A DNA stretch of 64,000 nucleotides from positions 15,963 through 79,962 of the forward strand of contig CAZFHS010000029.1 of the NCBI GenBank assembly GCA_964518955.1, given 5' to 3'. How positions within the stretch are numbered: the stretch's first letter is position 1; each line of letters opens with the position of its first letter. Origin of the DNA: an uncultured Gemmatimonadaceae bacterium (GTDB lineage: Bacteria > Gemmatimonadota > Gemmatimonadetes > Gemmatimonadales > GWC2-71-9). The notes under the pieces were generated by a model. It worked only from the letters and a program-made list of their open reading frames with translations, was not told the DNA's origin and made no database searches. Shown here piece after piece: positions 19,431 through 43,554 of the stretch. The position numbers were made by a program, and so were the translations under genes.

Positions 19431-19434
19431 CGCG

Positions 19435-21117: not shown

Positions 21118-21180
21118 TAGTCATACCTCGACCCGCGCCCACAGTGGCGAGGGCAATACGGGCATTACGCCCGTGATTAT

Positions 21181-21213
21181 TTTGAAAAGCCGACGGCTAT
21201 GTTAGCCGTCAGC
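21181..21213 (-). terminator. stem-loop plus U-tract at the end of dsrD (putative intrinsic terminator/attenuator before dsrL)
   Basis: The minus strand reads GCTGACGGCTA-ACA-TAGCCGTCGGC followed by TTTTCAAAATAAT. The stem is 11 bp with one G.U pair and includes the dsrD stop codon. Confidence 0.5.
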
Positions 21214-21459: not shown

Positions 21460-21470
21460 TCTGATACCTC

Positions 21471-22550: not shown

Positions 22551-22617
22551 CGCTCTATCTCCCCATTGGTACGATTAGTCTCAAGGTTCGCATGTTGGAT
22601 AAGTCAGCCCAACTGCG

Positions 22618-23835: not shown

Positions 23836-23923
23836 TTTGTTTCCTCTCCGCTTGGAATGATGGCGTTTTGTTGATCTCTTCAAATGTGTCTCAACTACAG
23901 TACTTCAACCTCACATCTATTCG

Positions 23924-23950
23924 AAAAAACAGGACACCGGCATCGCCGGT
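23924..23950 (-). terminator. short stem-loop and T6 tract just after dsrP (possible terminator separating dsrMKJOP from dsrAB)
   Basis: The minus strand reads ACCGGC-GAT-GCCGGT, then GTCCTG, then TTTTTT. It starts 3 nt after the dsrP stop. Confidence 0.4.
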
Positions 23951-23952
23951 AC

Positions 23953-25113: not shown

Positions 25114-25154
25114 ATATCTACCTCTCCGTTATCACTATCTAACCCGACGCGGCG

Positions 25155-25961: not shown

Positions 25962-25964
25962 CGC

Positions 25965-26378
25965 TCAGTTTCCTCTCGGCTCGACGTGACAGTCCCAACA
26001 CAGCGGTGTCACATTCGAATAGTCATGGCACCTAGTGCAAAACGTGTCCCTATCGTCATGACAACTCATACACGTCCCCGTAAGACTCATTGTGTACTGC
26101 TGGCCTGAAGCTGACGTGTATTCCGTTTCCCCGTCACGCACCAATGCGTTACGCCAATCGTTCAGGATGTCCATGTGGTTCGCTCTCATGAACTCGGTGT
26201 CCTCAATGCACGCAGTCTCACCCGCAGGATACTCGAGTTCGGGCATCGCTACCTCACCACCAGCGACGACCGTACTCCAAAGCGGATACGTCACCAACAC
26301 CAGGAAAACGACCAATCCGCCAATGATCTTTCCTCTATCACTCATCGGTGTCGCCTCCGTTGTCTTCGGCTTCGCCAC
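25965..26378 (-). CDS. dsrJ: DsrJ, trihaem periplasmic cytochrome c
   Basis: One N-terminal transmembrane helix. Three CxxCH motifs (CMSCH, CTRCH, CWDCH). The start could alternatively be ATG 26345; either way it overlaps the dsrK 3' end. Confidence 0.85.
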   Translation of the reverse strand: MAKPKTTEATPMSDRGKIIGGLVVFLVLVTYPLWSTVVAGGEVAMPELEYPAGETACIEDTEFMRANHMDILNDWRNALVRDGETEYTSASGQQYTMSLTGTCMSCHDDRDTFCTRCHDYSNVTPLCWDCHVEPRGN

Positions 26379-27996: not shown

Positions 27997-27998
27997 CG

Positions 27999-28988
27999 CT
28001 ATTCCCTCTCGACCGGTATCCCGGCCCCCTTCATCTTGTCCCTGAGTTCATCTTCATATTCGTCGTACGGATGCAACTTGACTGGGTAATCCCAGGGGTT
28101 GATATGCCTCACCGCTCGGTTGTTGTTCGCCATATTCCTGGTTGGGCTCAGGAATACGCCTGCCATGTGCATCAACTTACCAAACGGGATGTACGCGATC
28201 AGCACGCAAACTAAGAACAAATGTCCGTAGAAAATCGGGCTGATCGTATCGGGCACAGTCGGCGAGAAATGAGTCAGACCCAAGAACATTTCCTTGATCG
28301 CCGGAATATCGGTCTTGGTCAGATGTCTGAGTGAGAAACCGCTCAAGCCAATACCCAACAACAGGAATAGCGGTACGTAGTCTCCCACGAGCGATATGTA
28401 TCGCAGCTGTGGGTTGGCCAGTCTTCTGTAGAGAAGGTATGCCAGCCCCACAATGAAGATCACCGTCGTGGCAAAGAACACAGGCAGCCCTACCTGAAGA
28501 AAACCGTCGGCCACCTCGACGAAAGTCACAAAGCCCGGCACCGGACTGACCATCAGCCTCAGGTGTCGCACGAGAATGAAGAGAAGTGACCAGTGCATCG
28601 CCATGGCCGCCAACCACAAAGACAGGTCGGTGCCATATACGAGTCGGCCTTCATCGATCAATTTCGACTTCGTGTTCCTCAGTAGCGACCGGAACAGGAG
28701 GATCTCCATCGCCATCCTGCCGGACGTGGTTAGAAAGTTGTGTGGATTATCCAGCTTGTCGTGCTTGATCCAGGGCAAGGTCTTCTGCTGCCCGCAGGTT
28801 GTCGGGATACGGAATGGAACAGGAACTTTTGCCCAACCCAGCACTCGGTACACCAGACCACCGAGAAACAGCGCTATCGCTATGTAAGGCAGGATTACAC
28901 CGAATATCCATCCCAATCCCGGCACAGCGCCGAGCAAGCCCAGCAAGAACAGGCCACCCACGAATGCCAGGGAAACCACTACGTTCAT
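27999..28988 (-). CDS. dsrM: DsrM, NarI-like dihaem cytochrome b membrane subunit
   Basis: 329 aa, 5-6 transmembrane helices with conserved His residues. Immediately precedes dsrK (2-nt gap). Confidence 0.85.
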   Translation of the reverse strand: MNVVVSLAFVGGLFLLGLLGAVPGLGWIFGVILPYIAIALFLGGLVYRVLGWAKVPVPFRIPTTCGQQKTLPWIKHDKLDNPHNFLTTSGRMAMEILLFRSLLRNTKSKLIDEGRLVYGTDLSLWLAAMAMHWSLLFILVRHLRLMVSPVPGFVTFVEVADGFLQVGLPVFFATTVIFIVGLAYLLYRRLANPQLRYISLVGDYVPLFLLLGIGLSGFSLRHLTKTDIPAIKEMFLGLTHFSPTVPDTISPIFYGHLFLVCVLIAYIPFGKLMHMAGVFLSPTRNMANNNRAVRHINPWDYPVKLHPYDEYEDELRDKMKGAGIPVERE

Positions 28989-29010
28989 CGGAGATCCTCT
29001 CGTCGTACGT

Positions 29011-29562
29011 TCACGCTCTCGGACTCTCGTTATCCAAATCGGCCTCGACCAACTCCGGGCCGCCTTCGCGTTTGTTCAACTTTTCGACGATCCAAGACAC
29101 GCTTCGTTTCAACTCGTTCGAGCGTATCTCGAACACTTGCTCGCGGCATTCCACATAGACATCGAACGCGGCAAGAGCGACTTCGTCGATATTGCGTTCA
29201 AACATCCGAAACTCTGCCGAGATGTCTTCATGATCCAGAACTGCCGCTGCCTCTTCTCGAACTATGGTCTTCAGCTTGAAGATGAAATCCAACGCAGCAG
29301 ACGGTTCACACTGCTGTACTGCTCGAATCTTGACGATCTCAGCTAGGTGTCGGCGGATCTTCTCGGCACCCTGACATTCCAGGATGCCCTCGAAGATCGC
29401 CAACGTTCCTTCTCGCAGGCTGTGCCCCACTGGATTGGCAAATTGATTCTTCTGTTTGCCAAATGCAGCCGAGGCATCTCGGGCGTAAAGAGAAAGCGCT
29501 TCGTCGAGCCACCGCCCAACGATCTGCTCCTTCTTTTGTTCGAGTGTCTCTCTAAGGGCCAA
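29011..29562 (-). CDS. dsrT: DsrT-like protein (RsbRD N-terminal-domain family)
   Basis: 183 aa directly upstream of dsrM. Motif QFANPVGHSL and N-terminal KKEQIVGRWLDEAL, as I recall for DsrT/RsbRD_N proteins. Confidence 0.55.
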   Translation of the reverse strand: MALRETLEQKKEQIVGRWLDEALSLYARDASAAFGKQKNQFANPVGHSLREGTLAIFEGILECQGAEKIRRHLAEIVKIRAVQQCEPSAALDFIFKLKTIVREEAAAVLDHEDISAEFRMFERNIDEVALAAFDVYVECREQVFEIRSNELKRSVSWIVEKLNKREGGPELVEADLDNESPRA

Positions 29563-29609
29563 CGGTCAGCTCCACCGGAGACACAGTCTGCTCTTCTGCA
29601 ACTCTCGAA

Positions 29610-29927
29610 TTAGACGCAGCCAGTAGGCTTCGGAAGCCCGGCGACCTTGCAGGCGCCCTTCGCGGGGCCGCTTGGGAACAGGTCGTAGATCTCCTTGAGC
29701 TTGAAACCGGTCGCTTTGCACAACTTGCGGATCATAGGAGCCATGTTGAACTCGAGGTAATATTCTCTCAAGTAGTTCACGAGCTTCCAGTGATCATCGG
29801 TCAACTCATCGACGCCTTCGGTCTTGGCCAACGAAGCGGCAACGGCCTCATCCCACTGATCCGGATCCTGGATGAACCCGTCCTCGTCGATCTCCAGCAT
29901 TTTGCCACCAAGTTCAACCTCTGCCAT
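29610..29927 (-). CDS. dsrC: DsrC (TusE/DsrC/DsvC family sulfur carrier)
   Basis: 105 aa. The C-terminal arm ...GPAKGACKVAGLPKPTGCV carries both conserved cysteines, spaced 10 residues apart, one of them penultimate. Confidence 0.95.
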   Translation of the reverse strand: MAEVELGGKMLEIDEDGFIQDPDQWDEAVAASLAKTEGVDELTDDHWKLVNYLREYYLEFNMAPMIRKLCKATGFKLKEIYDLFPSGPAKGACKVAGLPKPTGCV

Positions 29928-29981
29928 CAGTCTCCTCCATTTTCATTTTCGGCTCTGCGCGCAGCAGCGCGCACCGCCTCT

Positions 29982-29999
29982 TTGTGTACAGTCACACAA
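29982..29999. promoter_or_regulatory. Rex-operator-like palindrome TTGTGT-ACAGTC-ACACAA upstream of dsrC
   Basis: Perfect 6+6 inverted repeat. It fits the TTGTG-N8-CACAA core of the canonical Rex box TTGTGAANNNNTTCACAA. It lies 55 nt upstream of the dsrC ATG and overlaps the osmC-like stop. Confidence 0.45.
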
Positions 30000-30387
30000 C
30001 AAACTCGATGTCAACGCATGGCGGGCTCCTCAGTGTCTCATGCACTGGACACAGCTCTGCCACACGCCGTATGACGTCCATCTTCTCTTCAGGAAACCCA
30101 TTCGGTAACTCGACATCGATTGCAAAACCACCGATGCGTTTGGGGTTGTCCGTCAACTCCAATGTCACCGAAACCGCTACGTCTCCATCGGTGTATCCAT
30201 GCGAGTCACAGTAGCCTTGCACCATCATCGCAACGCATGCACCAAGGGAGCCGGCAAGCATTTCAGCCGGAGCAATTCCTGCATCCCGGCCCCCGTCCTG
30301 CTCGGACATGTCGCTCAGCACTTCATGCCCGCGAACCTTCACATGGAACTGTCGATCTTCCTTCCGATCGACGGTGATCAGGTCCAA
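29992..30387 (-). CDS. OsmC/Ohr-family thiol protein
   Basis: GGRDAGIAPAEMLAGSLGACVAMMV and ELCPVHETL motifs (the two family cysteines). Starts 1 nt after the sat stop. Confidence 0.8.
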   Translation of the reverse strand: MDLITVDRKEDRQFHVKVRGHEVLSDMSEQDGGRDAGIAPAEMLAGSLGACVAMMVQGYCDSHGYTDGDVAVSVTLELTDNPKRIGGFAIDVELPNGFPEEKMDVIRRVAELCPVHETLRSPPCVDIEFVV

Positions 30388-30388
30388 A

Positions 30389-31588
30389 TCAGCCGTCCAA
30401 CGACTGGTAGTATCCCATCAAGATCTTCGCCACTTCAGGCCGTGCGAACTCGGGAGGAAGATCCTCACCCTTACCGAGCATCTCGCGAACCTTGGTGCCT
30501 GACAGGAACACGAAGTCTTCCTTCTTGTGGCCTTCCGGGGCCTCGCGCATCATGATCACGTCGCCTACGACGTGGGAATACGCCGTGTGGTCGGCCGCAA
30601 AGATCTGCAGTTCGAGCGAGCCTTCAGGCACTTCGTCGAAGATCGTCTGCGCATCGAACGGGCCGTAGTAATCTCCGACGCCGGCATGGTCACGACCAAC
30701 GATCAGGTGCGAAGCACCCATGTTCTGGCGGAAGACGGCGTGTAGCACGGCCTCACGCGGACCCGCGTAGAGCATGTCAAAGCCGTATCCCGTGATCTCG
30801 GCGGTATTCGGCTCAAAGTAGAGCTCGACCATCTTGCGGATCGCTGCATCACGAACGTCTGCGGGTATGTCACCCTTCTTGAGCTTACCGAGCAGCATGT
30901 GAATCACTGCACCGTCGGCGCCCACCCGCTCCATCGCGATCTTGACCAGCGCTTCGTGCGCACGGTGCATCGGATTACGAGTCTGGAACGCAACGACCTT
31001 CGACCAGCCATCCTCTTCCAGCTTGTTGCGGATTTCCACAGCCGTACGGAAGGTTTCCGGGAAATCAGCGGCAAAATAGGAGTAGCTCAGCACCTGGATT
31101 GGGCCGGCAATGAACGTTTTGCCTACGGACATCCAGTTTTTCACTCCCGGATGCTCGGTGTCTGTCGTCGCAAAGATCTTCTCAGACATCATCTTCATCT
31201 GATCGTCTGTCGCCTCATCGATGGACTCGACGTCCTGAATGGCGATTACCGGATTTCCGTCGACGTTCGGATCGAGCAATGCGATACGCTTGGCGTCGCC
31301 GATAGCGGAAGCGTCTTCAACGACGTTCACGATCGGTACAGGCCAAAACAGACCGTCTGTGGTCTTCATGCCCTCTGCAACGGACAGGGAGTCCGCGAGA
31401 TTCATATAACCTTTGAGCGGGTTGAAATAACCCGATCCCATCATCACCGCGTTCGCGGCCGCCTGCGAGCAGACGAGCAGCTTCGGCAGTCCCTCGGCTT
31501 CTTTCAGCAACTCAGCACGCTTCGCGTCGTCCGCCACGTACAGCGGGTTCAAAGTATCCGAACCATGCGGTTTGACTAGCTGGCCCAT
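30389..31588 (-). CDS. sat: sulfate adenylyltransferase (ATP sulfurylase)
   Basis: FQTRNPMHRAHE and VGRDHAGVG signature motifs. 399 aa. Confidence 0.95.
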   Translation of the reverse strand: MGQLVKPHGSDTLNPLYVADDAKRAELLKEAEGLPKLLVCSQAAANAVMMGSGYFNPLKGYMNLADSLSVAEGMKTTDGLFWPVPIVNVVEDASAIGDAKRIALLDPNVDGNPVIAIQDVESIDEATDDQMKMMSEKIFATTDTEHPGVKNWMSVGKTFIAGPIQVLSYSYFAADFPETFRTAVEIRNKLEEDGWSKVVAFQTRNPMHRAHEALVKIAMERVGADGAVIHMLLGKLKKGDIPADVRDAAIRKMVELYFEPNTAEITGYGFDMLYAGPREAVLHAVFRQNMGASHLIVGRDHAGVGDYYGPFDAQTIFDEVPEGSLELQIFAADHTAYSHVVGDVIMMREAPEGHKKEDFVFLSGTKVREMLGKGEDLPPEFARPEVAKILMGYYQSLDG

Positions 31589-31649: not shown

Positions 31650-32876
31650 TTACTTCCCCATTTGCGCCGATGCACTCACCGGCACCAAACTCTTAGAGTC
31701 ACTCACATTTCGTCCGGTGTGCTCTGCATATAGCATTGCGACAGTTCTGTAGACGATATGTGCAAACTTCGAATAGGGCAGATACACCAATAGCGCCACG
31801 ACACCAACGAGGTGGATGAAGTAGACCGTATACGCTGTCGTGGTCAGAACAGCGACTTCCGCCGGTTCACCCACGAACCTGAGAATCTCTGTAAACACAC
31901 CCGAAACACCCACGAATAGCAGCAGCCACACGAATGTCCAATCGAACGTGGTGCTGAGGGGAGCGTCATCACCGCCGCGGGCACGGTCGCCGATTGCCTT
32001 TACGGAGCCGTAGATGAGCAGAACCGCACCGATATTCGCGAGAAGCTTCATCGGATGCAACAGGTCAAACGGGTACATCGAATCGATGCCCAGCAAGGGA
32101 TTTACGTAAAGGTCCAGCACCGCCCACACAGTTACGATGAAGAGGGCCGTAAACCCGTAGAACGCGGTGAGGTGAGCAACCCGCCGCGATGCCTGGCTGG
32201 TACATTTACCGAACTTGTCGTGAATCAGAATCGACTTCACCACGTTGAAAAAACTGGGCACAATGCCGAGCACGGGAGACTGCGCACCGGATGATTCGTC
32301 GTGCGCCTTCATCGCATTCCAAAATCGGAACGCACCGAGAAGAACGACCAGTGTCGCAAGCCCGGTAAGCGTAGAGAAATAGCCGATCAGCAACCAATGG
32401 GGGAAAAAGTCGGCGTAGAACTCATGGTGCGGTTCGCCAAACGGCAACGCTGTTTCTAGAGGTCCTCTGATGATGAGGGCAAACCCGACGAGGAACGCCG
32501 CGATGAACAACATCAACGGTAATGTCTTCATCTGGTTCATCCATACCGCGAGGAACTTGGGTGTTGCATAGTGTCTGACGGCCTGATGTCTGACCGCCGC
32601 CAACAGATCGCCCGGGCGTGCTCCACGGAGGCACTTCGTCGAACAATCGTTACACTGATGGCAGAGCCAAACGTCGGGATCGGCGACGAGCTTGTCCTTC
32701 AGCCCCCACTGAGCCCAGAGCATTTCCTTGCGTGGGAACGGGGTGCGCCCTGTCGACAGCTCGCATACAACCGAGCAAGTTGCGCACTGGACGCACTTCT
32801 TCACGTCCGCGCCACCCTCGGCAAGGACATTCCTCAGGAATTCCCGGTCCGGATTCAGGACTATTGCTTCTGCCAT
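31650..32876 (-). CDS. qmoC: QmoC (HdrC-like Fe-S domain fused to HdrE/NarI-like membrane cytochrome b domain)
   Basis: N-terminal CVQCATCSVVCE and CHQCNDCSTKC, followed by about 6 transmembrane helices. Follows qmoB. Confidence 0.85.
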   Translation of the reverse strand: MAEAIVLNPDREFLRNVLAEGGADVKKCVQCATCSVVCELSTGRTPFPRKEMLWAQWGLKDKLVADPDVWLCHQCNDCSTKCLRGARPGDLLAAVRHQAVRHYATPKFLAVWMNQMKTLPLMLFIAAFLVGFALIIRGPLETALPFGEPHHEFYADFFPHWLLIGYFSTLTGLATLVVLLGAFRFWNAMKAHDESSGAQSPVLGIVPSFFNVVKSILIHDKFGKCTSQASRRVAHLTAFYGFTALFIVTVWAVLDLYVNPLLGIDSMYPFDLLHPMKLLANIGAVLLIYGSVKAIGDRARGGDDAPLSTTFDWTFVWLLLFVGVSGVFTEILRFVGEPAEVAVLTTTAYTVYFIHLVGVVALLVYLPYSKFAHIVYRTVAMLYAEHTGRNVSDSKSLVPVSASAQMGK

Positions 32877-32910: not shown

Positions 32911-35163
32911 TTACATCTTGAACGGGTTGAGGCCGATTTCCTCTATCTCTTCAGCAAACTCGTTGACAATCCCAGCCAGCTTCTCGAATTCATCTATGCC
33001 AAGTTGCTCGAGTCGCACCCGTTCTTCTTCCAGTGCTAGCTGCTGCAGTTTCTCCTGAACATTCTTGCCTCGTGTGTCCATCAGCTCACTTCCACGAATG
33101 TAGTGGCACTGATAGTCATCGCCCGACTTACACCCGATCAACAGCACACCGTCGTAGCCCTGCGACATGGCGTCTGCGATCCAGACGATGTTCACCGAGC
33201 CCAGGCAGCGAACCGGTATGAACCGGATGAATGCACTGTGCTGGAGGCGATTGAGCCCTGCTACATCAAGCGCCGGGTAGGCATCATTCTCGCAAATCAA
33301 GCCCAACAATCGTGGCTTTTCTTCAAACTCATCGGGAATCTCAACCGATTTGATCATCGACGAGATGATATCCACAGAGTAGTTCTTGAAAGAGATGATC
33401 CGTTCAGGACATGCACCCATGCAGATGCCACATCTGCGGCATCTGGTCAGATTGACCTCCGGCGTACCCTTATCATCTTCGTTGAGCGTCCCGAAGGGGC
33501 ACTCCTCAGTGCACCGCTTGCAGCTCGTGCAACGCTGCAGCGCGAAGTCGGGATAAGACTGATCTTCCCAACGCGGATGCATTGCCATGCCGCGCGTGGC
33601 GAGCTCGACACATTGGATCGCCTTCAGTGCCGCACCAGCACCGTCTTCTTTGCTCCCCTCGGTATCGTTGGGCGCGCGCGTGCAACCAGCCGCGTAAATA
33701 CCGGTCCGACGCGTTTCATACGGGAAACATATGAAGTGCGAGTCGGGGAAGTCGTACTTGAGCATCGGCAGATCGGGACCTTGCCGATAGGTGAGGTTCA
33801 ATATCTCGCTACCCTCGTGCTCCTTCAGCTCTTCGTACGTCGTTTTCGCCATTTCCAGCTGAGCGCCGGCTTCGTCTTTGGCGATGAGCTTCTTGGCATC
33901 CTCGACCTGGCGTATCGCCTCACCGTCGGCGGCGTTTGGCACCATTCCCGTAGCGAGCACGACCAGGTCTGCCTCGAGCTGGACGTTCTCGCCCAGGAGG
34001 GAGTTTTCCATGTTGACTACGAGATCGTTGCCACTGCCTTCGGTGACCGAAACCACTTCACCCTTGGTGAAGAATATTTCCGAGTCTTCCTGGGCTCTGC
34101 GATAGAAATCTTCGTGTTGGCCCGGAGACCTGAGGTCTTTGTACAGAACAAATGCCTGTGTTTCTGAATCGAGTTCGCGCGCCAGCAGCGCCTGCTTCAA
34201 GGAAACGCGGCAACATACGCCCGAGCAGTATGCCAGGTGTTCCTTATCTCGCGATCCTGCGCATTGGACAAAGGCGATCTTGCGCGCCGGCTTTCCGTCG
34301 GATGGGCGAGTGATCTTCCCAGTGGCAGACAACTCTTCCATTTCGACGTTGGTGATAACGTTTTGGAATCCGTATCCCAGGTGCTCGAGCTTCGAGGCGT
34401 CGTAGGGCTTCCATCCCGTTGCCTGGACGATGGCGCCAGCACGGAATTCGACATTGGACCCGTTCTTCTGCACCGAGACGTCGAACTGACCGGGCTGGCC
34501 ATCGATCTTCGCGACCGTAGCTCCGGTGTGCACCGTTATTCGTTCGCTGCCTTCGATTTCTGCTATCGCGGGTTCGAGATCAACTGTTTCGAGTTCCCGG
34601 TACGGAGCGCGAGTGGGATACACCTTTGCCCAGTTGCGAACCTGACCGCCGAGCTGCTCTTCCTTCTCCACCAACACCACATCGTACCCTGCCTTGGCTG
34701 ATTCCGAAGCCGCGCTCATGCCGGCCGGACCACCACCTACCACCAGGATGGTCTTGTCGATTTCGGCCTCGAACGGCTCGGGGAGATGCGATTTCTGCGC
34801 CCGAACCACACCCATGCGCATATAATCTTCAGCAAGCATCTGGGTGTCTTCGTCATTGGGCTCGTGGCTCCACACGACCATCTCGCGCAAATTCACGCGC
34901 TCCGTCAGGCATCCTTCAAAGTTGAAGGTGTCGACGTTGAATCGAGGGGAACAACCGGCGATGACTAGAGTGTTGACGCCGTCCTGTATGTCTTGCTTGA
35001 TCTGTTCAACGCCGTCATCGCCACACAGGTACTCGTGTGTACGACAGAGATCCTCATTCATCTCATCGGTGACGACTTTTTCTAGGGCTTCGACATCAAC
35101 GCACTTGCCGATATCACAACCCTGGCAGATCCAGACTGATACCTTCTTCTCTGTATTTTCCAC
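32911..35163 (-). CDS. qmoB: QmoB (HdrA-like flavoprotein with Fe-S clusters and MvhD-like C-terminus)
   Basis: FAD fold VVGGGPAGMSAA, ferredoxin motifs CTSCKRCTEECP / CRRCGICMGACP, and a C-terminal MvhD-like region. 750 aa. Confidence 0.9.
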   Translation of the reverse strand: MENTEKKVSVWICQGCDIGKCVDVEALEKVVTDEMNEDLCRTHEYLCGDDGVEQIKQDIQDGVNTLVIAGCSPRFNVDTFNFEGCLTERVNLREMVVWSHEPNDEDTQMLAEDYMRMGVVRAQKSHLPEPFEAEIDKTILVVGGGPAGMSAASESAKAGYDVVLVEKEEQLGGQVRNWAKVYPTRAPYRELETVDLEPAIAEIEGSERITVHTGATVAKIDGQPGQFDVSVQKNGSNVEFRAGAIVQATGWKPYDASKLEHLGYGFQNVITNVEMEELSATGKITRPSDGKPARKIAFVQCAGSRDKEHLAYCSGVCCRVSLKQALLARELDSETQAFVLYKDLRSPGQHEDFYRRAQEDSEIFFTKGEVVSVTEGSGNDLVVNMENSLLGENVQLEADLVVLATGMVPNAADGEAIRQVEDAKKLIAKDEAGAQLEMAKTTYEELKEHEGSEILNLTYRQGPDLPMLKYDFPDSHFICFPYETRRTGIYAAGCTRAPNDTEGSKEDGAGAALKAIQCVELATRGMAMHPRWEDQSYPDFALQRCTSCKRCTEECPFGTLNEDDKGTPEVNLTRCRRCGICMGACPERIISFKNYSVDIISSMIKSVEIPDEFEEKPRLLGLICENDAYPALDVAGLNRLQHSAFIRFIPVRCLGSVNIVWIADAMSQGYDGVLLIGCKSGDDYQCHYIRGSELMDTRGKNVQEKLQQLALEEERVRLEQLGIDEFEKLAGIVNEFAEEIEEIGLNPFKM

Positions 35164-35167
35164 TTGT

Positions 35168-36436
35168 CTACTCCCCGCAACTCTGCAAGGCTTTCAAGGC
35201 AGCACCAGTAGCATCCCGCACACAAACCGCGACATCCACCGGCCGCTTGGCACATCCTGCGGCCAGCATCCCTGCCATGGGTTGTTCATTAACGAGAAAG
35301 CCGTGCTCGTCTCTTTCCAATCCGCCGCCGTTGTCGAAGTTGACCGGCGCTCCGGCTGGAACGAGACCCGTTGCCAACACAGCGAGATTGACTCTCTGCT
35401 CAATCCGCTCACCCGTCATCGTATCCTCGGCCTCGAGCACCACATCGCCGCTAGCCGAGTCTTCCGTGACCTTCGCGACCTTGCCTTTGACCAGATGCAG
35501 CTTCTCGTCTTCCTGGCACATCTGATAGAAGTCGTCCAGTCGGCCTGGCGCGCGAATGTCGATGTAAAAGACGAAGATATCTGCTTCCGGATATTGCTCA
35601 CGCACGTACCGCGTTTGTTTCAGCGATCCCATGCAGCAAACACCGGAGCAATGCTTCAAGTAGTTCTCGTCACGCGATCCCGCACATTGTACGAACGCTA
35701 CCGACTCGACTTCCTTGTCGTCCGAAGGTCGCGTAATCTTGCCACCCGTTGGCCCGTCAATAGAGGCGAGCCGTTCCATCATCAAGTTTGTGATCACGTT
35801 CTTGTGTTTGCCGAAGCCGAGGCCTTCGAACAAAGTCGCGTCGGGTTGATCCCAGCCCGTGGCCCAGATTACCGATTGAACTTCCAGTTCAATCGTTTCG
35901 GGGTTCATGTCGAGTTCGATCGCGTCGTACTTGCACGCGTCGACACACTTACCGCATTCGGCACCTGGGCAGACACTTTCGTCAATCGTGTACTGAACCG
36001 GGTAGGCCATTTTATAAGGCAGGTAAATTGCCTTCGTCGTTCCGATCCCACAGTCGAATTCGTTGGGTCGTTCTACCGGGCAAGCCTCCACACATTCGCC
36101 GCATGCCGTACATTTGCTGGTGACGCGTCCCGGTTGCTGCTTGACCGTCACCTGGTAGTGACCCGCTTCGCCAGCAATCTTCTCGACCTCAGAGAGCGTC
36201 AGGCATCGGATGCTCGAGCTGGTCCTGATGCGCCGAAGGTTGATCTCCAGACCGCAAGACGGTGGGCAAAGCTTTGGGAAATATTCGTTCATCTGGGCAA
36301 CGCGACCGCCCATGTATGGATTTTTCTCCACCAATACGACGTCGCAGCCAGCCTCGGAAGCTTCAATCGCGGCTGTAATACCGCTTATCCCGCCTCCGAC
36401 CACGAGCACCGTGCCCCGCTTTCCGTTTCCACTCAT
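35168..36436 (-). CDS. qmoA: QmoA (HdrA-like flavoprotein)
   Basis: VVGGGISGITAA FAD fold, and CTACGECVEACP / CGKCVDAC ferredoxin motifs. 422 aa. Confidence 0.9.
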   Translation of the reverse strand: MSGNGKRGTVLVVGGGISGITAAIEASEAGCDVVLVEKNPYMGGRVAQMNEYFPKLCPPSCGLEINLRRIRTSSSIRCLTLSEVEKIAGEAGHYQVTVKQQPGRVTSKCTACGECVEACPVERPNEFDCGIGTTKAIYLPYKMAYPVQYTIDESVCPGAECGKCVDACKYDAIELDMNPETIELEVQSVIWATGWDQPDATLFEGLGFGKHKNVITNLMMERLASIDGPTGGKITRPSDDKEVESVAFVQCAGSRDENYLKHCSGVCCMGSLKQTRYVREQYPEADIFVFYIDIRAPGRLDDFYQMCQEDEKLHLVKGKVAKVTEDSASGDVVLEAEDTMTGERIEQRVNLAVLATGLVPAGAPVNFDNGGGLERDEHGFLVNEQPMAGMLAAGCAKRPVDVAVCVRDATGAALKALQSCGE

Positions 36437-37335
36437 TATTGATCCTCTTCGGGAGTCGTTTCTGCAGACTCCTTGTCGAACACTTTCCGCTTGTCGAGGC
36501 TTCCTTTGAAAGCCTCGGCGACATCGGGCTTCACTCGCATCGTAGCTTCACCGAACACACTGAACCGGATCCAGTGGTACGCGAATCGCAGTAGTTCCTC
36601 ATCGTCCGTCCGCATTCCTTCGACGAACTCTTCATCGATCTCGAACCGATCTAGGAGCGTGCTCTCGAATACGAATTCACGGAACTTGTCCAGGTCATAA
36701 CATGCCGTGAACAGCATGTGCATTCTCTCTGGCGAAAGCGCCGCATCACCTTGCTCGAAAAACTGGTGGAGCGTCAGTTCTTTGTATCCGTCACCCCAAC
36801 GGTCGTACTCGTAGATGCCTTGGTCTTCGAGCCATTGACGAACGGTTATCTCGGTGTCCTCCGCAAACCCCTGGCACACATCTTCCCTCAGTAGGAAGTA
36901 GAACTTCTCTCCGCCCCATCCGTCCGGCGTGTCCTTTTGAGCCGCCATGCCCAGCGGGTACATGCGACACGGCCAAGGTCGGTCCGAGTAGACGCCGCAG
37001 CCTTCGTCCGTCAAGAATTGGCATGACTTCGTCTCATCGTCGTTCATTCTCAGCACGACGACGGGCGTCTTCATATCCTTTTGAACCGGGAGCAGAGCGT
37101 ATCTGTCGAGGAAATCGCTCGACTTCATACCGAGGCGTTTCTTCAAACGCAGAACATCGTATGGCGACAGAAAGATGTTCACATCATGGCAGCATCGATT
37201 GAAGCAGGGAACGCCGGGATGACATCCAAACTTGAAGGTGTCATCGAGACCTAGCCTGGGGGTGTTTTCTAGGATCTTCTCTTCGAGATCGAGCTTCTGC
37301 TCTTCTGAATCGGTATTGCGTTCGTTGTCACTCAC
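36436..37335 (-). CDS. YkgJ/UPF0153-type cysteine-cluster protein (COG0727-like), function unknown
   Basis: CHPGVPCFNRCCHD plus CQFLTDEGCGVYSDRPWPCRMYP, the family signature. GTG start overlapping the stop of the upstream small ORF (GTGA). Its own TAA overlaps the qmoA ATG (TAATG). Confidence 0.7.
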   Translation of the reverse strand: MSDNERNTDSEEQKLDLEEKILENTPRLGLDDTFKFGCHPGVPCFNRCCHDVNIFLSPYDVLRLKKRLGMKSSDFLDRYALLPVQKDMKTPVVVLRMNDDETKSCQFLTDEGCGVYSDRPWPCRMYPLGMAAQKDTPDGWGGEKFYFLLREDVCQGFAEDTEITVRQWLEDQGIYEYDRWGDGYKELTLHQFFEQGDAALSPERMHMLFTACYDLDKFREFVFESTLLDRFEIDEEFVEGMRTDDEELLRFAYHWIRFSVFGEATMRVKPDVAEAFKGSLDKRKVFDKESAETTPEEDQ

Positions 37336-37616
37336 GGGGCGTCTCCTTCGGACTCATCCACGATCATCTCGCGTGTCGCGGCATCCGACCATACCGGTAG
37401 AGGTGAAGAAGCGCCTGTAGAAGGGTTGACTGCGAATCGATACGAAGCGTTTTGTTTGAACTGCTCCTTCATCCAACTCCAGCCGTTCTTGTAATAAGAA
37501 CAGTCATCATTGAAGCAAACAAAAAAGAACTCCTCATCCCATGAAGCATCGACGGGCACACGCCATTTGCTCAGGCGTGTATCGCAGTGAGGGCAGGTTC
37601 GCGAAAACTCTTTCAT
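37332..37616 (-). CDS. small zinc-ribbon-like protein (94 aa), function unknown
   Basis: CPHC...(22 aa)...CFNDDC four-Cys arrangement. Trp-rich (WSWMKEQF). Translationally coupled to the YkgJ-like gene. Confidence 0.5.
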   Translation of the reverse strand: MKEFSRTCPHCDTRLSKWRVPVDASWDEEFFFVCFNDDCSYYKNGWSWMKEQFKQNASYRFAVNPSTGASSPLPVWSDAATREMIVDESEGDAP

Positions 37617-37739
37617 TCGGTTCCTCGGTCGATCATCGTTGATTCATGCCGGCCTGGAAACCGTCCCTCGCCCAGCTGCGAAAGTCCGAATGCCTTTCGA
37701 GACAAAAAAGTTTCAAGAGGAGTCCAGGATGGGACCTGA

Positions 37740-37760
37740 GGGCACCGCGGCGCGGTGCCC
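37740..37760 (-). other. strong GC stem-loop downstream of aprA (mRNA-stabilising or terminator-like element)
   Basis: GGGCACCGCG-G-CGCGGTGCCC, a nearly perfect 10-bp inverted repeat 30 nt after the aprA stop. A T6 run follows about 30 nt further downstream on the minus strand (37704..37709). Confidence 0.4.
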
Positions 37761-37790
37761 CAAGATCCCAAGTACCATGAAGCCGTTTGG

Positions 37791-39683
37791 TTAGACAGAG
37801 ATGTACTTAACCGGCTTCTTCATCATCTCCCACTCACCCGTGTTCTTGTCATACTTGCAGTTGCAGAAAGCCAACCAATTGTCATTGTCGATGGACGGCT
37901 TGTCAGCCCTGAAGTAATAACCGGGCCAGCGGGTTTCCTCGCGGAACAGGATCGAGTGCACGTGTGCGTATGCCTGATACATGCGGTGGACGTTCTCCCA
38001 ACAACGCATCAGTTCGTGCAAGCTATCCGCAGCTTGATTCTCTGCGTCTTCTTTCAAGAAGTCGAGCAGCTCCAAGCCCTTCTCCAGCATCTTGTCGCTG
38101 GTCATGAACTGAGCTGAAACGCCACCCGCATACTCGTCCATGATCTTCTGGAGACGATACATGAACTGCTTGGCACGGATGTAGTTCGGGTTGATCTCAG
38201 GATCCGTCGTGGCACCCTTGTGTTCTTCGAACATGTTCATCGGTTTCAAGATCTTCGCGGTCAGATCGTCGATCTGGGCCTGGTCCACAGTCGGTGCATC
38301 GTTGTTGTCAACGATGTACGCGCAAGCGGCCTTGGCTGCGATACGACCTTCGGTGAACGAGCCCGAGGAGAACTTGTGACTGGAAGCGCCGGAGGCGTCG
38401 CCAGCTGCAAACATGCCCGATACGGTGGTCATGTTCGGGTAACCCCAGAAGTACTCGTCCTTGGTCTCGCCGGTCTGCAAGTCTTCGGGACCGGAGACCC
38501 ATGCGCCTGAAGCACCGGAGTGCGAACCGATGAAGTACGGATCGCAAGCCATGATCTCAGACGGCTTCTTCTCAGGCTCGACGTTCGAGGCCGCCCACAA
38601 AATGGCCTGTGAAATCGTCATGTCCAGGAAGTCTTCCCATGCCTCAGCCTCGAGTTCCTTCAACTTCTTCTTCGCGGCCTTCTCGTCGGGCGCCTTCTCC
38701 GCGATCCTCTGGATGGCTTCGGCGGTCTGCATGTAAATCGGCGCCTTACCTTCCATGACGTCGAGCATCATGAGCCAGTTACGGATGTTAGCCGGACGCG
38801 GCTTGACCTTGCCATAGGGCTCCCACTTGTCGAGCTCGGGCTCACGCTCTTGCATGTAGTTGCCGCCCTGCGCGTTTGTCGCAACCGACTTGAAGAGCAA
38901 GAACCACGCACCGACCGGGCCGTATGCATCCTTGAACCGGACAGGAATGAAGCGAACTTCCTGACAGGTCATCTCAGCACCAGCATACAGGGTGAAGAAT
39001 GCGCTGGAAGCAGAGTTGAACGGCGGGTACCAGGAGCGGCCGAAGCCCTCACCAGTGGAACGCGGCTTGAAGACGTGCACCGCACCACCCAGGATCACCA
39101 TAGTCGCCTTCGCCTTGAACACATACACTTTGTTCTCACGGACGCTGAAGCCGATCGCGCCGGCGCAATTGTCACCATCCATCAGCGGGTGCGTCAGGAA
39201 GACGCGCTCGAAGTATTCGGCGCCGGCATCGGCAAGCGCGTTCTTCGCTGCCTCAGCCACGATGACTTTGTAGGATTCACCATTGATCATGAGCTGCCAA
39301 CGGCCCTCATGAACGTAGTTGCCATCCGCATCCGTCCAGATCGGAAGGCCCCACTTTTCAAACAGGTGGACCGTACCGTCAACATGACGGGCGATGTTGG
39401 CCACCAAGTCCTCACGAGTGATGCCCATGAGGTCGTTGCGGACGTAGTCGCAATAGTCCTTCAACGTGTTGTTACCGCTATTCAGATCCACATACTGGTT
39501 GATGGCCGAAAGACCCATCGCAACCGCACCAGAGCGATCCATCGCCGCTTTGTCGACTACGGTGACCTTCAAGCCGGCCTTTTTGGCCCAATAGGAGGCT
39601 TCAACCGCTGCTCCGCAGGCGCCCATTCCGCCGCCGCAGATCAGCAGATCAGTCTCGACCGTTACAGTTTCAAAATCCGCCAT
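37791..39683 (-). CDS. aprA: adenylylsulfate (APS) reductase alpha subunit
   Basis: FAD motif LLICGGGMGACGAA. 630 aa with the C-terminal ...WLAFCNCKYD... region typical of AprA. Follows aprB. Confidence 0.95.
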   Translation of the reverse strand: MADFETVTVETDLLICGGGMGACGAAVEASYWAKKAGLKVTVVDKAAMDRSGAVAMGLSAINQYVDLNSGNNTLKDYCDYVRNDLMGITREDLVANIARHVDGTVHLFEKWGLPIWTDADGNYVHEGRWQLMINGESYKVIVAEAAKNALADAGAEYFERVFLTHPLMDGDNCAGAIGFSVRENKVYVFKAKATMVILGGAVHVFKPRSTGEGFGRSWYPPFNSASSAFFTLYAGAEMTCQEVRFIPVRFKDAYGPVGAWFLLFKSVATNAQGGNYMQEREPELDKWEPYGKVKPRPANIRNWLMMLDVMEGKAPIYMQTAEAIQRIAEKAPDEKAAKKKLKELEAEAWEDFLDMTISQAILWAASNVEPEKKPSEIMACDPYFIGSHSGASGAWVSGPEDLQTGETKDEYFWGYPNMTTVSGMFAAGDASGASSHKFSSGSFTEGRIAAKAACAYIVDNNDAPTVDQAQIDDLTAKILKPMNMFEEHKGATTDPEINPNYIRAKQFMYRLQKIMDEYAGGVSAQFMTSDKMLEKGLELLDFLKEDAENQAADSLHELMRCWENVHRMYQAYAHVHSILFREETRWPGYYFRADKPSIDNDNWLAFCNCKYDKNTGEWEMMKKPVKYISV

Positions 39684-39749: not shown

Positions 39750-40217
39750 CTAGAGCGTGGGGACCTTGTCCATCTTCACTGGGCCACGCTCGGTGTTGAG
39801 CACCTCAGGCTCGCACATGAGTGTGGGGCTCTTCAGGTCGTCGTCTGCAGTGGGGTAATGATCGAACGGCTGCGCTTTGCCTTCTTCGACGCCTTTGCGA
39901 ATGGGGAACTTGAACCGCTTCGGCTTGATTTCCTTGCTCCGGAACTGAACGGTCCACATGATGCTGTCCGTGCTGCGCATCGCGGTGACGCTTGCGCCCA
40001 TCGGCACGAAGTCCTGATAGCCGCGCACCTCGATCGCCTGCGTGGGGCAGATCTTGACGCAGCTGTAGCACTCCCAGCACATCTGCGGGTCCTGGTTGTA
40101 CGCCTTCATGATCTCTTTGTCCAAAACCATGAGGTCGTTGGGACAAATGTACTGGCAGGCAGTCTTGTCGAGTGCCTTACAGCCGTCACATTTGTCCGGA
40201 ATTACGTAACTTGGCAT
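39750..40217 (-). CDS. aprB: adenylylsulfate (APS) reductase beta subunit
   Basis: MPSYVIPDKCDGCK...CQYICPND...CWECYSCVKICP, plus the AprB-specific C-terminal tail. Confidence 0.95.
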   Translation of the reverse strand: MPSYVIPDKCDGCKALDKTACQYICPNDLMVLDKEIMKAYNQDPQMCWECYSCVKICPTQAIEVRGYQDFVPMGASVTAMRSTDSIMWTVQFRSKEIKPKRFKFPIRKGVEEGKAQPFDHYPTADDDLKSPTLMCEPEVLNTERGPVKMDKVPTL

Positions 40218-40822: not shown

Positions 40823-41455
40823 TCATTCTTCTTCCAGCTGCCTCAGGTAGTGCGCGATCTCGGCAAACCCGAGCGAAATGTGCTCTTCACGTACCAGAAC
40901 TCCAGGTGGCACGAACAGCCTGATCGGCGAGAAATTCCAGATCGCCTTGATGCCCATGTCGACCAGACGATCGGCAATGTGCTGCGAGACCGTCGCCGGC
41001 GTTGTAATAATGGCGAGCTGGATTGCGTGCTTCTCGATGAACGGCTTCAGGGCCTGCATCGGCTTGATTGTCGCACCTGCAACCTTGCGACCCTTCAGTT
41101 TCTTGTCGTTGTCGAACGCAGCAACGATTTCGAGTCCATACCGGGAAAAACCGTGGTAGGTCAGAAGAGCGCTGCCAAGACGGCCTGCACCGACCAGTAC
41201 GGCGTCGACCTCTCGATCGAAGCCAAGAGCGGCCCTAATCGACCGGCATACTTCACACCTCTCAAAGCCGACACGACCCATACCCACGATACCAATGGAA
41301 CCGAGGTCCTTGCGTACTTGCGTCGGGTCGATGTCCAGCGCCTCTGCAATCTCGGCGCTGGTAACTGTCGGTCCCTTCCCTTTTGGGTTCGAATCGGAAA
41401 GAAGCCGATAATACCGCATCAAGCGCTCTACGACCAATCGTCGTAACCGAGCCAA
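40823..41455 (-). CDS. rex: redox-sensing transcriptional repressor Rex
   Basis: N-terminal winged helix RLMRYYRLL...TSAEIAEALDIDPTQVRKDLGSIG. NADH Rossmann motif AVLVGAGRLGSALL. 210 aa. Confidence 0.9.
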   Translation of the reverse strand: MARLRRLVVERLMRYYRLLSDSNPKGKGPTVTSAEIAEALDIDPTQVRKDLGSIGIVGMGRVGFERCEVCRSIRAALGFDREVDAVLVGAGRLGSALLTYHGFSRYGLEIVAAFDNDKKLKGRKVAGATIKPMQALKPFIEKHAIQLAIITTPATVSQHIADRLVDMGIKAIWNFSPIRLFVPPGVLVREEHISLGFAEIAHYLRQLEEE

Positions 41456-41495
41456 ATTCTACCCCCTCAAACACCTGAAATCCTTACTCACGACG

Positions 41496-41519
41496 TTAAC
41501 GAGATTTTTATCACGTTTT
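41496..41519. promoter_or_regulatory. copy 4 of the box (TTAACGAGATTTTTATCACGTTTT) in the rex / cbiX divergent region
   Basis: Lies 41 nt upstream of the rex ATG and upstream of the oppositely oriented cbiX-cobA/hemD genes. Confidence 0.5.
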
Positions 41520-41661
41520 CGGCGTTCGTGGATTCTAATCGAGGGTCCCGGTTAGTCAAGCCGAATCGAGAAATCCATCACGTTTCGGACTTAAAGTGGA
41601 ACACCGGGGGCACTTTGCGTACCATGCATCCCATGAATTGGCAGCACGAACCAACCGGCCT

Positions 41662-42021
41662 ATGTTGATCGCAATCGCCCACGGGAGTAGGAACCCTGCC
41701 TGGCGCGACTCCGTCGAGCGGCAATTCGAGCTGCTCGAGGCTGAGCTCGGACCAGGCAAACTACAGTTGGCCTATATGGACCTGTCTCCACCGTCGCTCA
41801 TGGACATTGTTGAAGCAACCGTCCAGCATGGTGTGACCAAGCTCAGAGTTTTTCCGCTGTTCTTGGCTGTTGAAGGGCACGTGACGAAGGACGTACAGCC
41901 CCTGATAGACGATATTCGGAAGACCTTCCCTTCCGTGCATATCGAGTTGCTGCCTCCGTTAGGCCAACAACCTCTATTTCGCGAGATGCTGCGCAGTCTC
42001 GCGCAAGAGGAATCTCAGTAG
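41662..42021 (+). CDS. cbiX: small CbiX/SirB-type sirohydrochlorin chelatase
   Basis: MLIAIAHGSRNPAWR... (the chelatase His-Gly-Ser motif) and RVFPLFLAVEGHVTKD. The track start at 41596 is possible, but 41662 gives the family-typical N-terminus. Confidence 0.75.
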   Translation: MLIAIAHGSRNPAWRDSVERQFELLEAELGPGKLQLAYMDLSPPSLMDIVEATVQHGVTKLRVFPLFLAVEGHVTKDVQPLIDDIRKTFPSVHIELLPPLGQQPLFREMLRSLAQEESQ

Positions 42022-42033
42022 GCGGAATACAAA

Positions 42034-43554
42034 ATGACCGACCTCAACGATTCTCCTGGCACCGTATACCTGGTGGGCGCCGGCCCCGGCGACCCGGGCG
42101 CCATCACCCTGCGCGCCGTGGAATGTCTCCAGACGGCTGACCTCATACTGTGGGACTACCTGGTTAATCCTGTGGTCGTTGAGCATGCAGGTTCAAGTGC
42201 AGAATTGATCCATCTGGGAAAGCCAGGTTCCGGTAGATCGCTCACTCCCGGTGAAATCACAGATATGGTGATCGAAGCCGCCAAAGCCGGCCGGTCGGTG
42301 GTCAGGCTCAAGAGTGGAGATGCGTCGATATTTGGGCGGGGCGCCGACGAGATGGACGCACTTCGGGAAGCGGGAATCCCGTTCGAGGTTGTACCCGGTA
42401 TCACGGCAGGATTGGCTGTAGCGGCGTATAGCGAGATTCCGGTAACTCATTACGCAGAGGCTTCTGCCGTAGCGCTGGTGACTGGGCGGGAACGGGATGA
42501 GAAATCGGCCCTGCAGTTGGAACGCGGGCTGGCGGACTTCCCTGGCACACTCGTGTTTTACATGGGTGTTCGCAGAGCTCCGGAGTGGAGCCGCGCTCTG
42601 ATTGCGCAGGGCAAGGCACCGAACACTCCAGTCGCAATTGTCCAATGGTGTTCGCGCGCCGAGCAACAGACGGTACGCTGCACGTTGGAGACGGTCTCTG
42701 CGACCATCGACGATCACGAGATTCGTCCGCCCGCTTTGTTCGTCGTCGGACGAGTGGTTGATCATGCCCCGGACGCTTCATGGTTCGAGTCTCGTCCCCT
42801 CTTCGGCACCACTATACTCGTCCCCGGGACTCCACTCACCTCAGTGAAACTGCGGGATCATCTGAGTGCTCAGGGTGCCAACGTTGTCCTTTCACCCGCG
42901 ATCAGAATCGATGCGCCTGAAGAATGGTCGGCGTTGGATGATTCGCTCGACCGCATTCAGGACTTCGACTGGCTCGTCTTCTCAAGCGCAAACGGAGTTG
43001 ATTTCCTGCTGCAGAGGCTGCACGAAAGAGGTGGTGACGCACGGAGGCTAGGAGGCATCAAGCTCGCAGCCATCGGACCGGGGACCGCCGAAAGACTCTC
43101 CGGCTACCACCTAAACACCGATCTGGTGCCAGATACCTACACCGCCGAAGGTCTCGCAGAGGCACTCGCGCCATTTGCTGCCGGCGGACGTTTTCTGCTA
43201 GCGCGCGCTAGCCAGGGCCGCGACATCCTTGCTCAGCGCCTACATGGGGCCGGCGCAGAGGTAACTCAGGTAGTGGTGTATGCTAGCGCGGGTGTCACCG
43301 AAGCGGATTCTCGGATAACCGACGCACTCGGTCGAAGTGAGATCGACTGGGTTTCCGTGGCTAGTTCCGAGACGGCAAGGTCACTTCACAGACTCTACGG
43401 CCAAGCGCTCGGCAACGCTCGTCTCGCAAGCATCAGTCCCGTTACGACGGCGGCGCTCCGCGAGCTAGGATATGAACCGGTGGTCGAGGCTACTGCTCAC
43501 ACGATTAAAGGCATCGCGGACGCGATAGTGAGCCACCGCGAATCTGACGGCTAG
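42034..43554 (+). CDS. cobA: uroporphyrinogen-III C-methyltransferase / uroporphyrinogen-III synthase fusion (CobA-HemD)
   Basis: N-terminal VYLVGAGPGDPGAITLRAVECLQTADLILWD and SGDASIFGRG SUMT motifs. The C-terminal ~250 aa is HemD-like (two-lobed, LVFSSANGV...). Confidence 0.9.
   Translation: MTDLNDSPGTVYLVGAGPGDPGAITLRAVECLQTADLILWDYLVNPVVVEHAGSSAELIHLGKPGSGRSLTPGEITDMVIEAAKAGRSVVRLKSGDASIFGRGADEMDALREAGIPFEVVPGITAGLAVAAYSEIPVTHYAEASAVALVTGRERDEKSALQLERGLADFPGTLVFYMGVRRAPEWSRALIAQGKAPNTPVAIVQWCSRAEQQTVRCTLETVSATIDDHEIRPPALFVVGRVVDHAPDASWFESRPLFGTTILVPGTPLTSVKLRDHLSAQGANVVLSPAIRIDAPEEWSALDDSLDRIQDFDWLVFSSANGVDFLLQRLHERGGDARRLGGIKLAAIGPGTAERLSGYHLNTDLVPDTYTAEGLAEALAPFAAGGRFLLARASQGRDILAQRLHGAGAEVTQVVVYASAGVTEADSRITDALGRSEIDWVSVASSETARSLHRLYGQALGNARLASISPVTTAALRELGYEPVVEATAHTIKGIADAIVSHRESDG

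Follow-up and report, generated by a model that had tools for sequence, protein, structure and literature searches.

Why do two genes for cysteine-containing proteins stand between aprA and qmoA, which directly abut in the classical operon? The arrangement occurs in the window studied here, a stretch of 64,000 nucleotides (nt) of contig CAZFHS010000029.1 from an uncultured Gemmatimonadaceae bacterium, in a minus-strand operon with the order aprB, aprA, ORF94, ORF299, qmoA, qmoB, qmoC, sat. ORF94 and ORF299 are open reading frames (ORFs) of 94 and 299 amino acids (aa), and their neighbors encode the APS reductase AprAB (APS, adenosine 5′-phosphosulfate) along with the Qmo complex. APS reductase catalyzes a reaction that is central to sulfur cycling worldwide, and how it exchanges electrons with the membrane has been a question for two decades.

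We find that ORF94 and ORF299 form a conserved, co-inherited and co-translated two-gene module of the APS reductase gene set. The pair keeps its place directly behind aprBA in genomes and metagenomes from several phyla, including loci in which the genes that follow it are not qmoABC. The features of the locus are as follows (all on the minus strand).

37332..37616, minus: ORF94, acidic zinc-ribbon protein, 94 aa, ATG start (PF04606, 27.9 bits)
36436..37335, minus: ORF299, YkgJ/PF03692-type cysteine-cluster protein, 299 aa, GTG start (PF03692, 36.5 bits)
37731..37769, minus: GC-rich stem-loop (from its fold z-score), about 20 nt past the aprA stop, within the aprA-ORF94 spacer
39750..40217, minus: aprB, APS reductase beta subunit, 155 aa (TIGR02060, 190 bits; PF12139)
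37791..39683, minus: aprA, APS reductase alpha subunit, 630 aa (TIGR02061, 875 bits)
35168..36436, minus: qmoA, 422 aa, HdrA-like flavoprotein with a Fer4 domain
32911..35163, minus: qmoB, 750 aa, HdrA-like flavoprotein with Pyr_redox_2, Fer4 and FlpD/MvhD-like domains
31650..32876, minus: qmoC, membrane subunit, 408 aa, with a Fer4_8 dicluster domain and hydrophobic segments
30389..31588, minus: sat, ATP sulfurylase, 399 aa (PF01747, PF14306)
40823..41455, minus: Rex-type redox-sensing repressor, upstream of aprB (PF06971, PF02629)

The original prediction, which was made from the letters of the window, described this local layout correctly throughout. Two ORFs of these positions and sizes do lie between aprA and qmoA; the flanks are aprBA and qmoABC, as seen from the TIGR02061 and TIGR02060 matches and the expected Qmo domains; and the zinc-ribbon and YkgJ assignments are both above the Pfam cut-offs (PF04606 and PF03692). 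The two start/stop overlaps that it pointed out are also present. At GTGA (37332-37335), the ORF94 stop codon TGA (37334-37332) overlaps the ORF299 start GTG (37335-37333), and at TAATG (36434-36438), the ORF299 stop TAA (36438-36436) has one base in common with the ATG of qmoA (36436-34). Shine-Dalgarno-like strings (GGAG/GAGG) are found 6-10 nt 5′ of the starts of ORF94, ORF299 and qmoA. AprB aligns end to end with Archaeoglobus fulgidus AprB (PDB 1JNR_B), and the best solved relative of AprA is the A. fulgidus protein (1JNR_A, E = 3.6e-227).

Conservation of the pair and of its place

A genome scan seeded with ORF299, with one genome per species, found relatives in 249 stretches, and the best 80 loci were analyzed; loci were found and ranked by similarity to the pair, so that the share of all apr loci that carry it is not derivable from these numbers. 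All genome loci retrieved are from metagenome-assembled genomes (MAGs), and the 80 represent Gemmatimonadota, Planctomycetota, Latescibacterota and Chitinivibrionia, as well as MAGs labelled delta-proteobacterial, Desulfobacteraceae or Spirochaetales. The order aprB, aprA, ORF94, ORF299 is kept in 80 of 80, as far as the contigs extend, and the sole apparent exception is a scaffold gap of 100 N immediately 5′ of ORF94. An independent scan of metagenome contigs, seeded with ORF94, gave 80 further loci. Here ORF94 is followed by ORF299 in 75 of the 75 testable cases (six had been flagged by the script, five of them being frameshift-split alignments and one a 231-nt gap barely over the threshold), aprA is 5′ of ORF94 in 52 of 53, and qmoA is 3′ of ORF299 in 40 of 47. 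Chance ORFs are excluded by this conservation, and a local insertion of the pair is excluded by the synteny. The possibility raised with the original prediction, that homologues would never be linked to apr or qmo genes elsewhere, is contradicted by some 160 loci. The two genes are thus strong candidates for unstudied components of the APS reductase system in many bacterial phyla, and would be useful as a marker for annotating apr loci in metagenomes. The closest relatives of the window are marine-sediment Gemmatimonadota MAGs, in agreement with a report of sat/aprAB/qmoABC/dsrAB clusters in one Gemmatimonadota clade (PMC11316326).

The linkage extends to distant relatives. In a search with a profile of distant family members only, 11 matches were picked for a long contig or a taxon label. 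Nine of these lie directly 3′ of sat-aprB-aprA and are 48-54% identical to ORF299 (measured on the loci), and the other two, which are 39-44% identical, are unlinked to apr. The nine apr-linked loci include Omnitrophota, Elusimicrobia and Kapabacteriales, and all but one have an Ogr-like ORF between aprA and the YkgJ-like gene, although in two it is not called as a gene. The one apr-linked locus with no ORF94 homologue detected is that of an Elusimicrobia MAG (L088, 5054-5304), which has a gap of only 250 nt at this point; this locus may do without ORF94, or its ORF94 may have diverged beyond detection. In the two loci that lack apr, the Ogr-like and YkgJ-like genes are about 1 kb apart (L086), or two tandem family members are present with an adjoining S-adenosylmethionine (SAM) methyltransferase gene (L087). 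Tandem paralogues of ORF299 also occur in L009 (6959-7798) and L013, where a second copy of 279 aa directly follows the first.

One instance of the pair had been recorded previously. In Thermonerobacter thiotrophicus (Kapabacteria), Thiel et al. (2019) noted two conserved hypothetical genes directly after aprA, in the order sat-aprBA-x-x-qmoC-dsrAB, with qmoAB elsewhere in the genome (PMC6338057). Our Kapabacteriales contig (L085) has the published order, and the two genes in question are homologous to ORF94 (41% identity) and ORF299 (52%). The same apr-linked pair is therefore present in the window, in the 80 genome loci, in the 80 metagenome loci and in L085, the difference being that in Kapabacteria it is followed by qmoC alone and dsrAB, and in the window by a full qmoABC. 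Thiel et al. gave no family assignment, distribution or function for the two genes (PMC6338057), and we found no paper that does so (in a literature search with most subscription journals outside its scope); within the same scope, the original view that the pair had no described function is borne out, and the pair is recorded once, as hypothetical genes.

The genes that follow the pair are considerably more variable than the pair itself. The most common module is qmoABC. Other loci have a TauE-like permease and a small membrane protein, followed by either a QmoC-like protein or a CCG-domain (HdrD-like) protein; an ORF299 paralogue (or none) and then a NarI/DsrM-like cytochrome b with an HdrD/DsrK-like protein; qmoC and then dsrAB (L085); a TauE-like permease alone (L088); or nothing related (L081, L089 and L092), in some cases with a divergent QmoC-like gene upstream of sat. 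The position of the pair is constant between aprBA and the electron-transfer/membrane module, even though that module changes. Because the pair persists where the module varies, it follows aprBA more faithfully than it follows qmoAB, and is a more constant companion of aprBA than qmoAB is. The proposed tie to qmoA stands, with a refinement: where qmoA is present the tight coupling is conserved, but the link to aprBA is the closer one, and the pair is kept in loci without qmoAB. The TauE/SafE-type permease is immediately 3′ of the pair in L005, L014, L039, L088, L099, L102, L108 and L139, usually accompanied by a roughly 150-aa membrane protein together with a protein of the QmoC-like or CCG-domain kind, and these constitute a second type of apr locus, without adjacent qmoAB.

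Within the operon, the pair is joined to what follows and set off from what precedes it. The start/stop overlap between ORF94 and ORF299 is found in 69 of 83 loci (mostly 4 nt), and that between ORF299 and qmoA in 58 of 73, which agrees with the tight translational coupling proposed from the window. On the other side, the aprA-ORF94 spacer is 174 nt in the window, and the gap has a median of 171 nt across loci (1 of 79 is without it, by a heuristic start call). A 191-nt stretch over the window spacer folds with −74.7 kcal/mol (z = −3.4), and an equivalent hairpin with z < −2 is found in 65 of 78 related loci. In most of these it starts 15-40 nt past the aprA stop, and the structure is kept while the stem sequence differs; a U-tract follows it in a few loci (L006, L015 and L085). 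A scan for sigma-70 promoters and terminators gave no site within the aprA-ORF94 spacer. The hairpin is probably a partial terminator or a 3′ mRNA stabilizer that sets the AprBA:Qmo expression ratio. In such an arrangement, aprBA would be the abundant upstream unit, and ORF94-ORF299-qmoABC would follow downstream as a coupled unit whose products are less abundant, at the level of Qmo.

The pair is also as constrained as the Qmo flavoproteins. Median identities to the window proteins are 85% for AprA and AprB, 66% for ORF94, 67% for ORF299, 69% for QmoA, 70.5% for QmoB and 58% for QmoC. Mean pairwise distances rank the proteins in a matching way (0.15 for AprA/AprB, 0.35 for ORF94, 0.32 for ORF299, 0.32 for QmoA, 0.29 for QmoB and 0.45 for QmoC). 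On the basis of these two sets of values, ORF94 and ORF299 evolve at the QmoA/QmoB rate. As judged from their sequences, they are real genes under strong purifying selection, with soluble, acidic products that are predicted to be cytoplasmic.

The two proteins and their relatives

The four cysteines of ORF94 (residues 8, 11, 34 and 39) form a CX2CX22CX4C pattern, and the protein matches the Ogr_Delta zinc finger family (PF04606) at 27.9 bits, a marginal 1.6 bits above the cut-off of 26.3. Its homologues (n = 245) are mostly 94 aa long. All four cysteines are invariant in the family, as are W18, W26, W46, W48 and W76, and the zinc finger is followed by a C-terminal extension of approximately 50 residues that is rich in Trp and Tyr and has invariant Trp, Tyr and Arg positions. 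The protein is acidic (isoelectric point (pI) 4.7, net charge −5) and has no hydrophobic segment, the highest 19-residue hydropathy value being 0.26 (compared to 2.62 for QmoC). No match was found in NCBIfam or to the phage Ogr families in PHROGs, and a sequence-profile search of the PDB gave only a chance match (E = 0.89), i.e., no solved relative.

The CX2CX22CX4C spacing is shared with the Ogr/Delta activators of phages P2 and P4, which raises the question of whether the pair is regulatory, with ORF94 as an Ogr/Delta-type activator and ORF299 as a redox-sensing iron-sulfur (Fe-S) partner that together control qmo, sat and dsr. The exact spacing, the above-threshold score and the location of the pair after the hairpin, at the start of the qmo sub-operon, are what such a scheme would have in its favor. 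ORF94 differs from the phage activators in being acidic and chromosomal, in its respiratory-operon setting, in the lack of a PHROGs match and in its Trp-rich extension, and it does not appear to belong to the late-gene transcription activators as a functional family, on the grounds of PHROGs, charge and operon context. When the narrow Pfam margin is added, together with the start/stop overlap with a structural gene (unusual for a regulator) and the dedicated Rex repressor already encoded upstream, a regulatory role for the pair seems very improbable.

ORF299 matches PF03692 (CxxCxxCC/YkgJ, UPF0153) at 36.5 bits (cut-off 23), and its GTG start lines up with the N-termini of its homologues. There are 2386 of these in the databases, the best 120 being 67-92% identical, and among representative proteins 1923 clusters are matched at E <= 1e-3, of which 186 reach E <= 1e-30. 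The majority of the representatives are 240-290 aa long and have CX5CX3CC and DRPxxCRxYP motifs. In an alignment of 100 members reaching down to approximately 30% identity (A2), each of which matches PF03692 at E <= 0.01 (100/100), six cysteines are invariant (C38, C44, C48, C49, C113 and C123) and two more are at least 90% conserved (C105 and C154); the N-terminal motif is C38-X5-C44-X3-C48-C49. The protein has a pI of 4.6 and is soluble by hydropathy (highest 19-residue value 0.55, with the same 2.62 for QmoC). An AlphaFold2 model built on a shallow 26-sequence alignment was unusable (predicted local distance difference test (pLDDT) score of 55), a problem that was fixed by the 100-sequence alignment (pLDDT 90.2, predicted template-modeling score (pTM) 0.85). 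The resulting model has a helix at its N-terminus, a core of alpha/beta type that is rich in cysteines, and a C-terminal domain made up of helices. It has no match in the PDB by Foldseek (best E = 0.94, TM <= 0.16), and the sequence-profile search of the PDB found nothing either. ORF299 likewise has no match in PHROGs, and no NCBIfam family at E <= 0.01.

The only characterized PF03692 protein is FliB, a flagellin lysine methyltransferase that is [4Fe-4S]- and SAM-dependent, and whose CX4CX3CC motif holds an oxygen-sensitive [4Fe-4S] cluster; FliB has eight conserved cysteines (PMC8598068). ORF299 resembles FliB in having an N-terminal CX4-5CX3CC motif and eight conserved cysteines as well. 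It differs in its context (apr/qmo rather than flagellar), in its own helical C-terminal domain and DRPWPCRMYP motif, and in having no NCBIfam match, hence none to the FliB model that NCBIfam presumably includes. By context and by this lack of a match, ORF299 is not a member of the FliB flagellin lysine-N-methylase family. A physiological role for the pair would give the large YkgJ/UPF0153 subfamily its first physiological context.

Two unusual proteins in the ORF299 searches deserve mention. P0378 (690 aa), from the representative library, is a radical SAM enzyme fused to a full-length ORF299-like domain (residues 451-685), and it also shows a SPASM-like CxxCxxxxxCxxxC motif; the fusion hints that the ORF299 fold is able to function in enzymes or in peptide modification. 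P0267, an apparent fusion of 508 aa, is by eye a frameshifted read-through of ORF94, ORF299 and qmoA.

The identity of ORF299 as a CCG-domain protein of the HdrB/HdrD/DsrK type was considered and rejected. It has no PF02754 match, and hhalign gave probabilities of 0.1-0.5% for the A2 profile against the window DsrK and the HdrD-like protein of L009 (single sequences as targets, so that sensitivity is limited). A related proposal is that the pair handles the sulfur substrate or product, as a cysteine carrier of sulfite or bound sulfur among AprAB, the TauE permease and DsrAB/DsrMK-type enzymes. The adjacent CC cysteines of ORF299 would suit a carrier, as would the TauE/SafE-type permease directly after the pair in L005, L088, L099, L102, L108 and L139, and the HdrD/DsrK-like proteins with a CCG domain (whose substrates are protein disulfides or trisulfides) after it in L009, L091 and L139. 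However, all eight ORF299 cysteines fit the metal-binding pattern of PF03692, Pfam reveals no similarity to the DsrC, TusA, DsrE or rhodanese families, and most loci have neither a TauE nor a CCG protein beside the pair. We consider a sulfur carrier quite unlikely.

A proposed link between AprAB and the membrane

The reading that we tentatively favor, with a probability of roughly 0.4, is that the pair is a soluble Zn-ribbon/Fe-S heterodimer that sits on AprAB and serves as a relay or adaptor to whichever quinone-linked module is present. In this scheme, the zinc ribbon (ORF94) and the YkgJ-type protein (ORF299) would pair up, and the CX5CX3CC motif of ORF299 would carry at least one redox-active [4Fe-4S] cluster, by analogy with the FliB motif. 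The remaining four conserved cysteines could hold a second cluster or a metal site. The heterodimer would dock on AprAB and couple it to QmoABC, to a lone QmoC-like cytochrome b/Fe-S protein or to a DsrMK/HdrDE-like pair, acting as an electron relay, a structural adaptor or both, and would be made in Qmo-like amounts, under the level of AprAB.

Several observations lead to this reading. The position of the pair is constant between aprBA and a changing electron module; its translational coupling and its sequence constraint are both those of a subunit; and FliB supplies the Fe-S precedent. In addition, Qmo binds AprAB, yet electrons have not been seen to pass directly from the one to the other in vitro, and attempts at reconstitution have not yielded direct transfer; a third partner was therefore suggested, for which classical operons have no co-localized gene (PMC3333476). 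The pair is a concrete cross-phylum candidate, encoded where apr and qmo meet in the non-classical lineages that prevail in many sediments.

There are also observations that weigh against a relay or adaptor. Classical aprBA-qmoABC operons do without the pair, and direct binding of QmoABC to AprAB occurs in Desulfovibrio (PMC3333476), so an adaptor is not needed universally. Kapabacteria encode qmoAB at another place in the genome (PMC6338057), so that a replacement of qmoAB by the pair is not required even where qmoC alone adjoins it. The sole characterized relative, FliB, is an enzyme and not an electron carrier, and the radical SAM/SPASM fusion of P0378 points to catalysis or modification. 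ORF299 has no detectable similarity to known electron-transfer folds (by Foldseek against the PDB, and <1% by hhalign against two CCG proteins). The mirror-tree signal of ORF299 towards AprA and QmoA (partial correlations of 0.40 and 0.33, and of 0.28 with ORF94) is confounded by physical linkage, as these proteins are also its neighbors on the DNA. Finally, genes for assembly chaperones, e.g., narJ in narGHJI, just as typically occupy the slot between catalytic-subunit and membrane-subunit genes.

In the main rival reading, the pair would serve to mature or modify AprAB and would stay outside of the working complex. ORF299 would then be a FliB-like [4Fe-4S] enzyme or a cofactor-insertion chaperone, and its target would be AprA, AprB, or ORF94 as substrate or carrier. 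The pair is found 3′ of aprBA also in loci with no adjoining electron module, Qmo or other (L081, L088, L089 and L092). FliB, with its eight conserved cysteines, modifies protein in a [4Fe-4S]- and SAM-dependent manner; P0378 joins a radical SAM/SPASM enzyme to a full ORF299-like domain; and a SAM methyltransferase adjoins the two tandem family members of L087, which is not an apr locus. The gene slot is also like that of narJ, although Pfam shows no relationship to NarJ-type chaperones, eight cysteines are conserved in ORF299, and this is a two-protein module. Against this, ORF299 lacks a match to the FliB model, and classical sulfate reducers have active AprAB without a linked pair. The conservation of the pair equals that of QmoA and QmoB, the tight coupling into qmoA is more typical of stoichiometric subunits, and the end-to-end conservation of ORF94, a folded zinc ribbon, is not typical of a peptide substrate for modification. 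On balance, a maturation system is possible but somewhat doubtful.

A stronger form of the favored reading would make the pair the missing third partner of APS reductase and Qmo, i.e., a soluble Zn/Fe-S redox module of a new type, which would bind AprAB and without which electrons would not flow between AprAB and the quinone-linked module. It could possibly gate or confurcate electrons, and could replace QmoAB where only a QmoC-like or DsrMK-like module adjoins aprBA. We regard this combination of claims as unlikely. If true, it would be a widespread and unrecognized architecture of dissimilatory APS reduction and sulfite oxidation, extending over Gemmatimonadota, Planctomycetota, Kapabacteria, Omnitrophota and other phyla.

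Comparison with known systems helps to place the locus and the pair. The window has the same core genes in the same order, with canonical domains, as the classical sat-aprBA-qmoABC operon of Desulfovibrio and green sulfur bacteria, and differs by two extra genes and a conserved hairpin between aprA and qmoA. Since the classical cluster is written aprBA-qmoABC, with no co-localized partner genes reported (PMC3333476), we consider the locus to be a variant architecture of a known system. The pair does not consist of Qmo subunits, because ORF94 and ORF299 lack flavin adenine dinucleotide (FAD), ferredoxin and membrane domains, and genuine qmoA, qmoB and qmoC are separately present. Other AprAB partners are known, namely AprM and QmoAB-HdrBC in sulfur oxidizers and Gram-positive sulfate reducers (PMC3333476, PMC10504309). 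These are similar in being lineage-specific partner genes beside aprBA, replacing QmoABC or alongside it. The difference is that ORF94 and ORF299 come on top of the membrane module and do not take its place, and that ORF299 has no CCG similarity (for the two proteins compared). As both proteins are soluble by hydropathy, neither is a membrane anchor like AprM.

Neighboring genes

The sat gene may have a history that is distinct from that of the cluster around it. When the Sat proteins of L001-L080 are compared to that of the window, 33 loci are 43-50% identical and 15 are 78-96% identical, with none between. These are two distinct Sat lineages, and their presence suggests that sat has been replaced within an otherwise conserved cluster.

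A complete dsr island is located 3′ of sat on the minus strand (window positions 18027-30387). Its genes are, in order, OsmC-like, DsrT-like (with an RsbRD_N domain), dsrM, dsrK, dsrO, dsrP, dsrA, dsrB, an 85-aa ORF, dsrL-like and dsrN. The 85-aa ORF (21202-21459) is in the position of DsrD and has no Pfam match, and the dsrL-like gene is at 19435-21117. A gene in the dsrD position together with dsrL in one island is an unusual combination, reported for Acidobacteria and Kapabacteria.

On the other side of the operon (40823-43554), the Rex gene is directly 5′ of aprB, and a Rex homologue is upstream of aprB in approximately half of 80 related loci; a search with the Rex operator consensus gave matches at the chance level only. 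The same segment contains CbiX and CobA/HemD fusion genes, which are divergently transcribed and have domains typical of siroheme biosynthesis.

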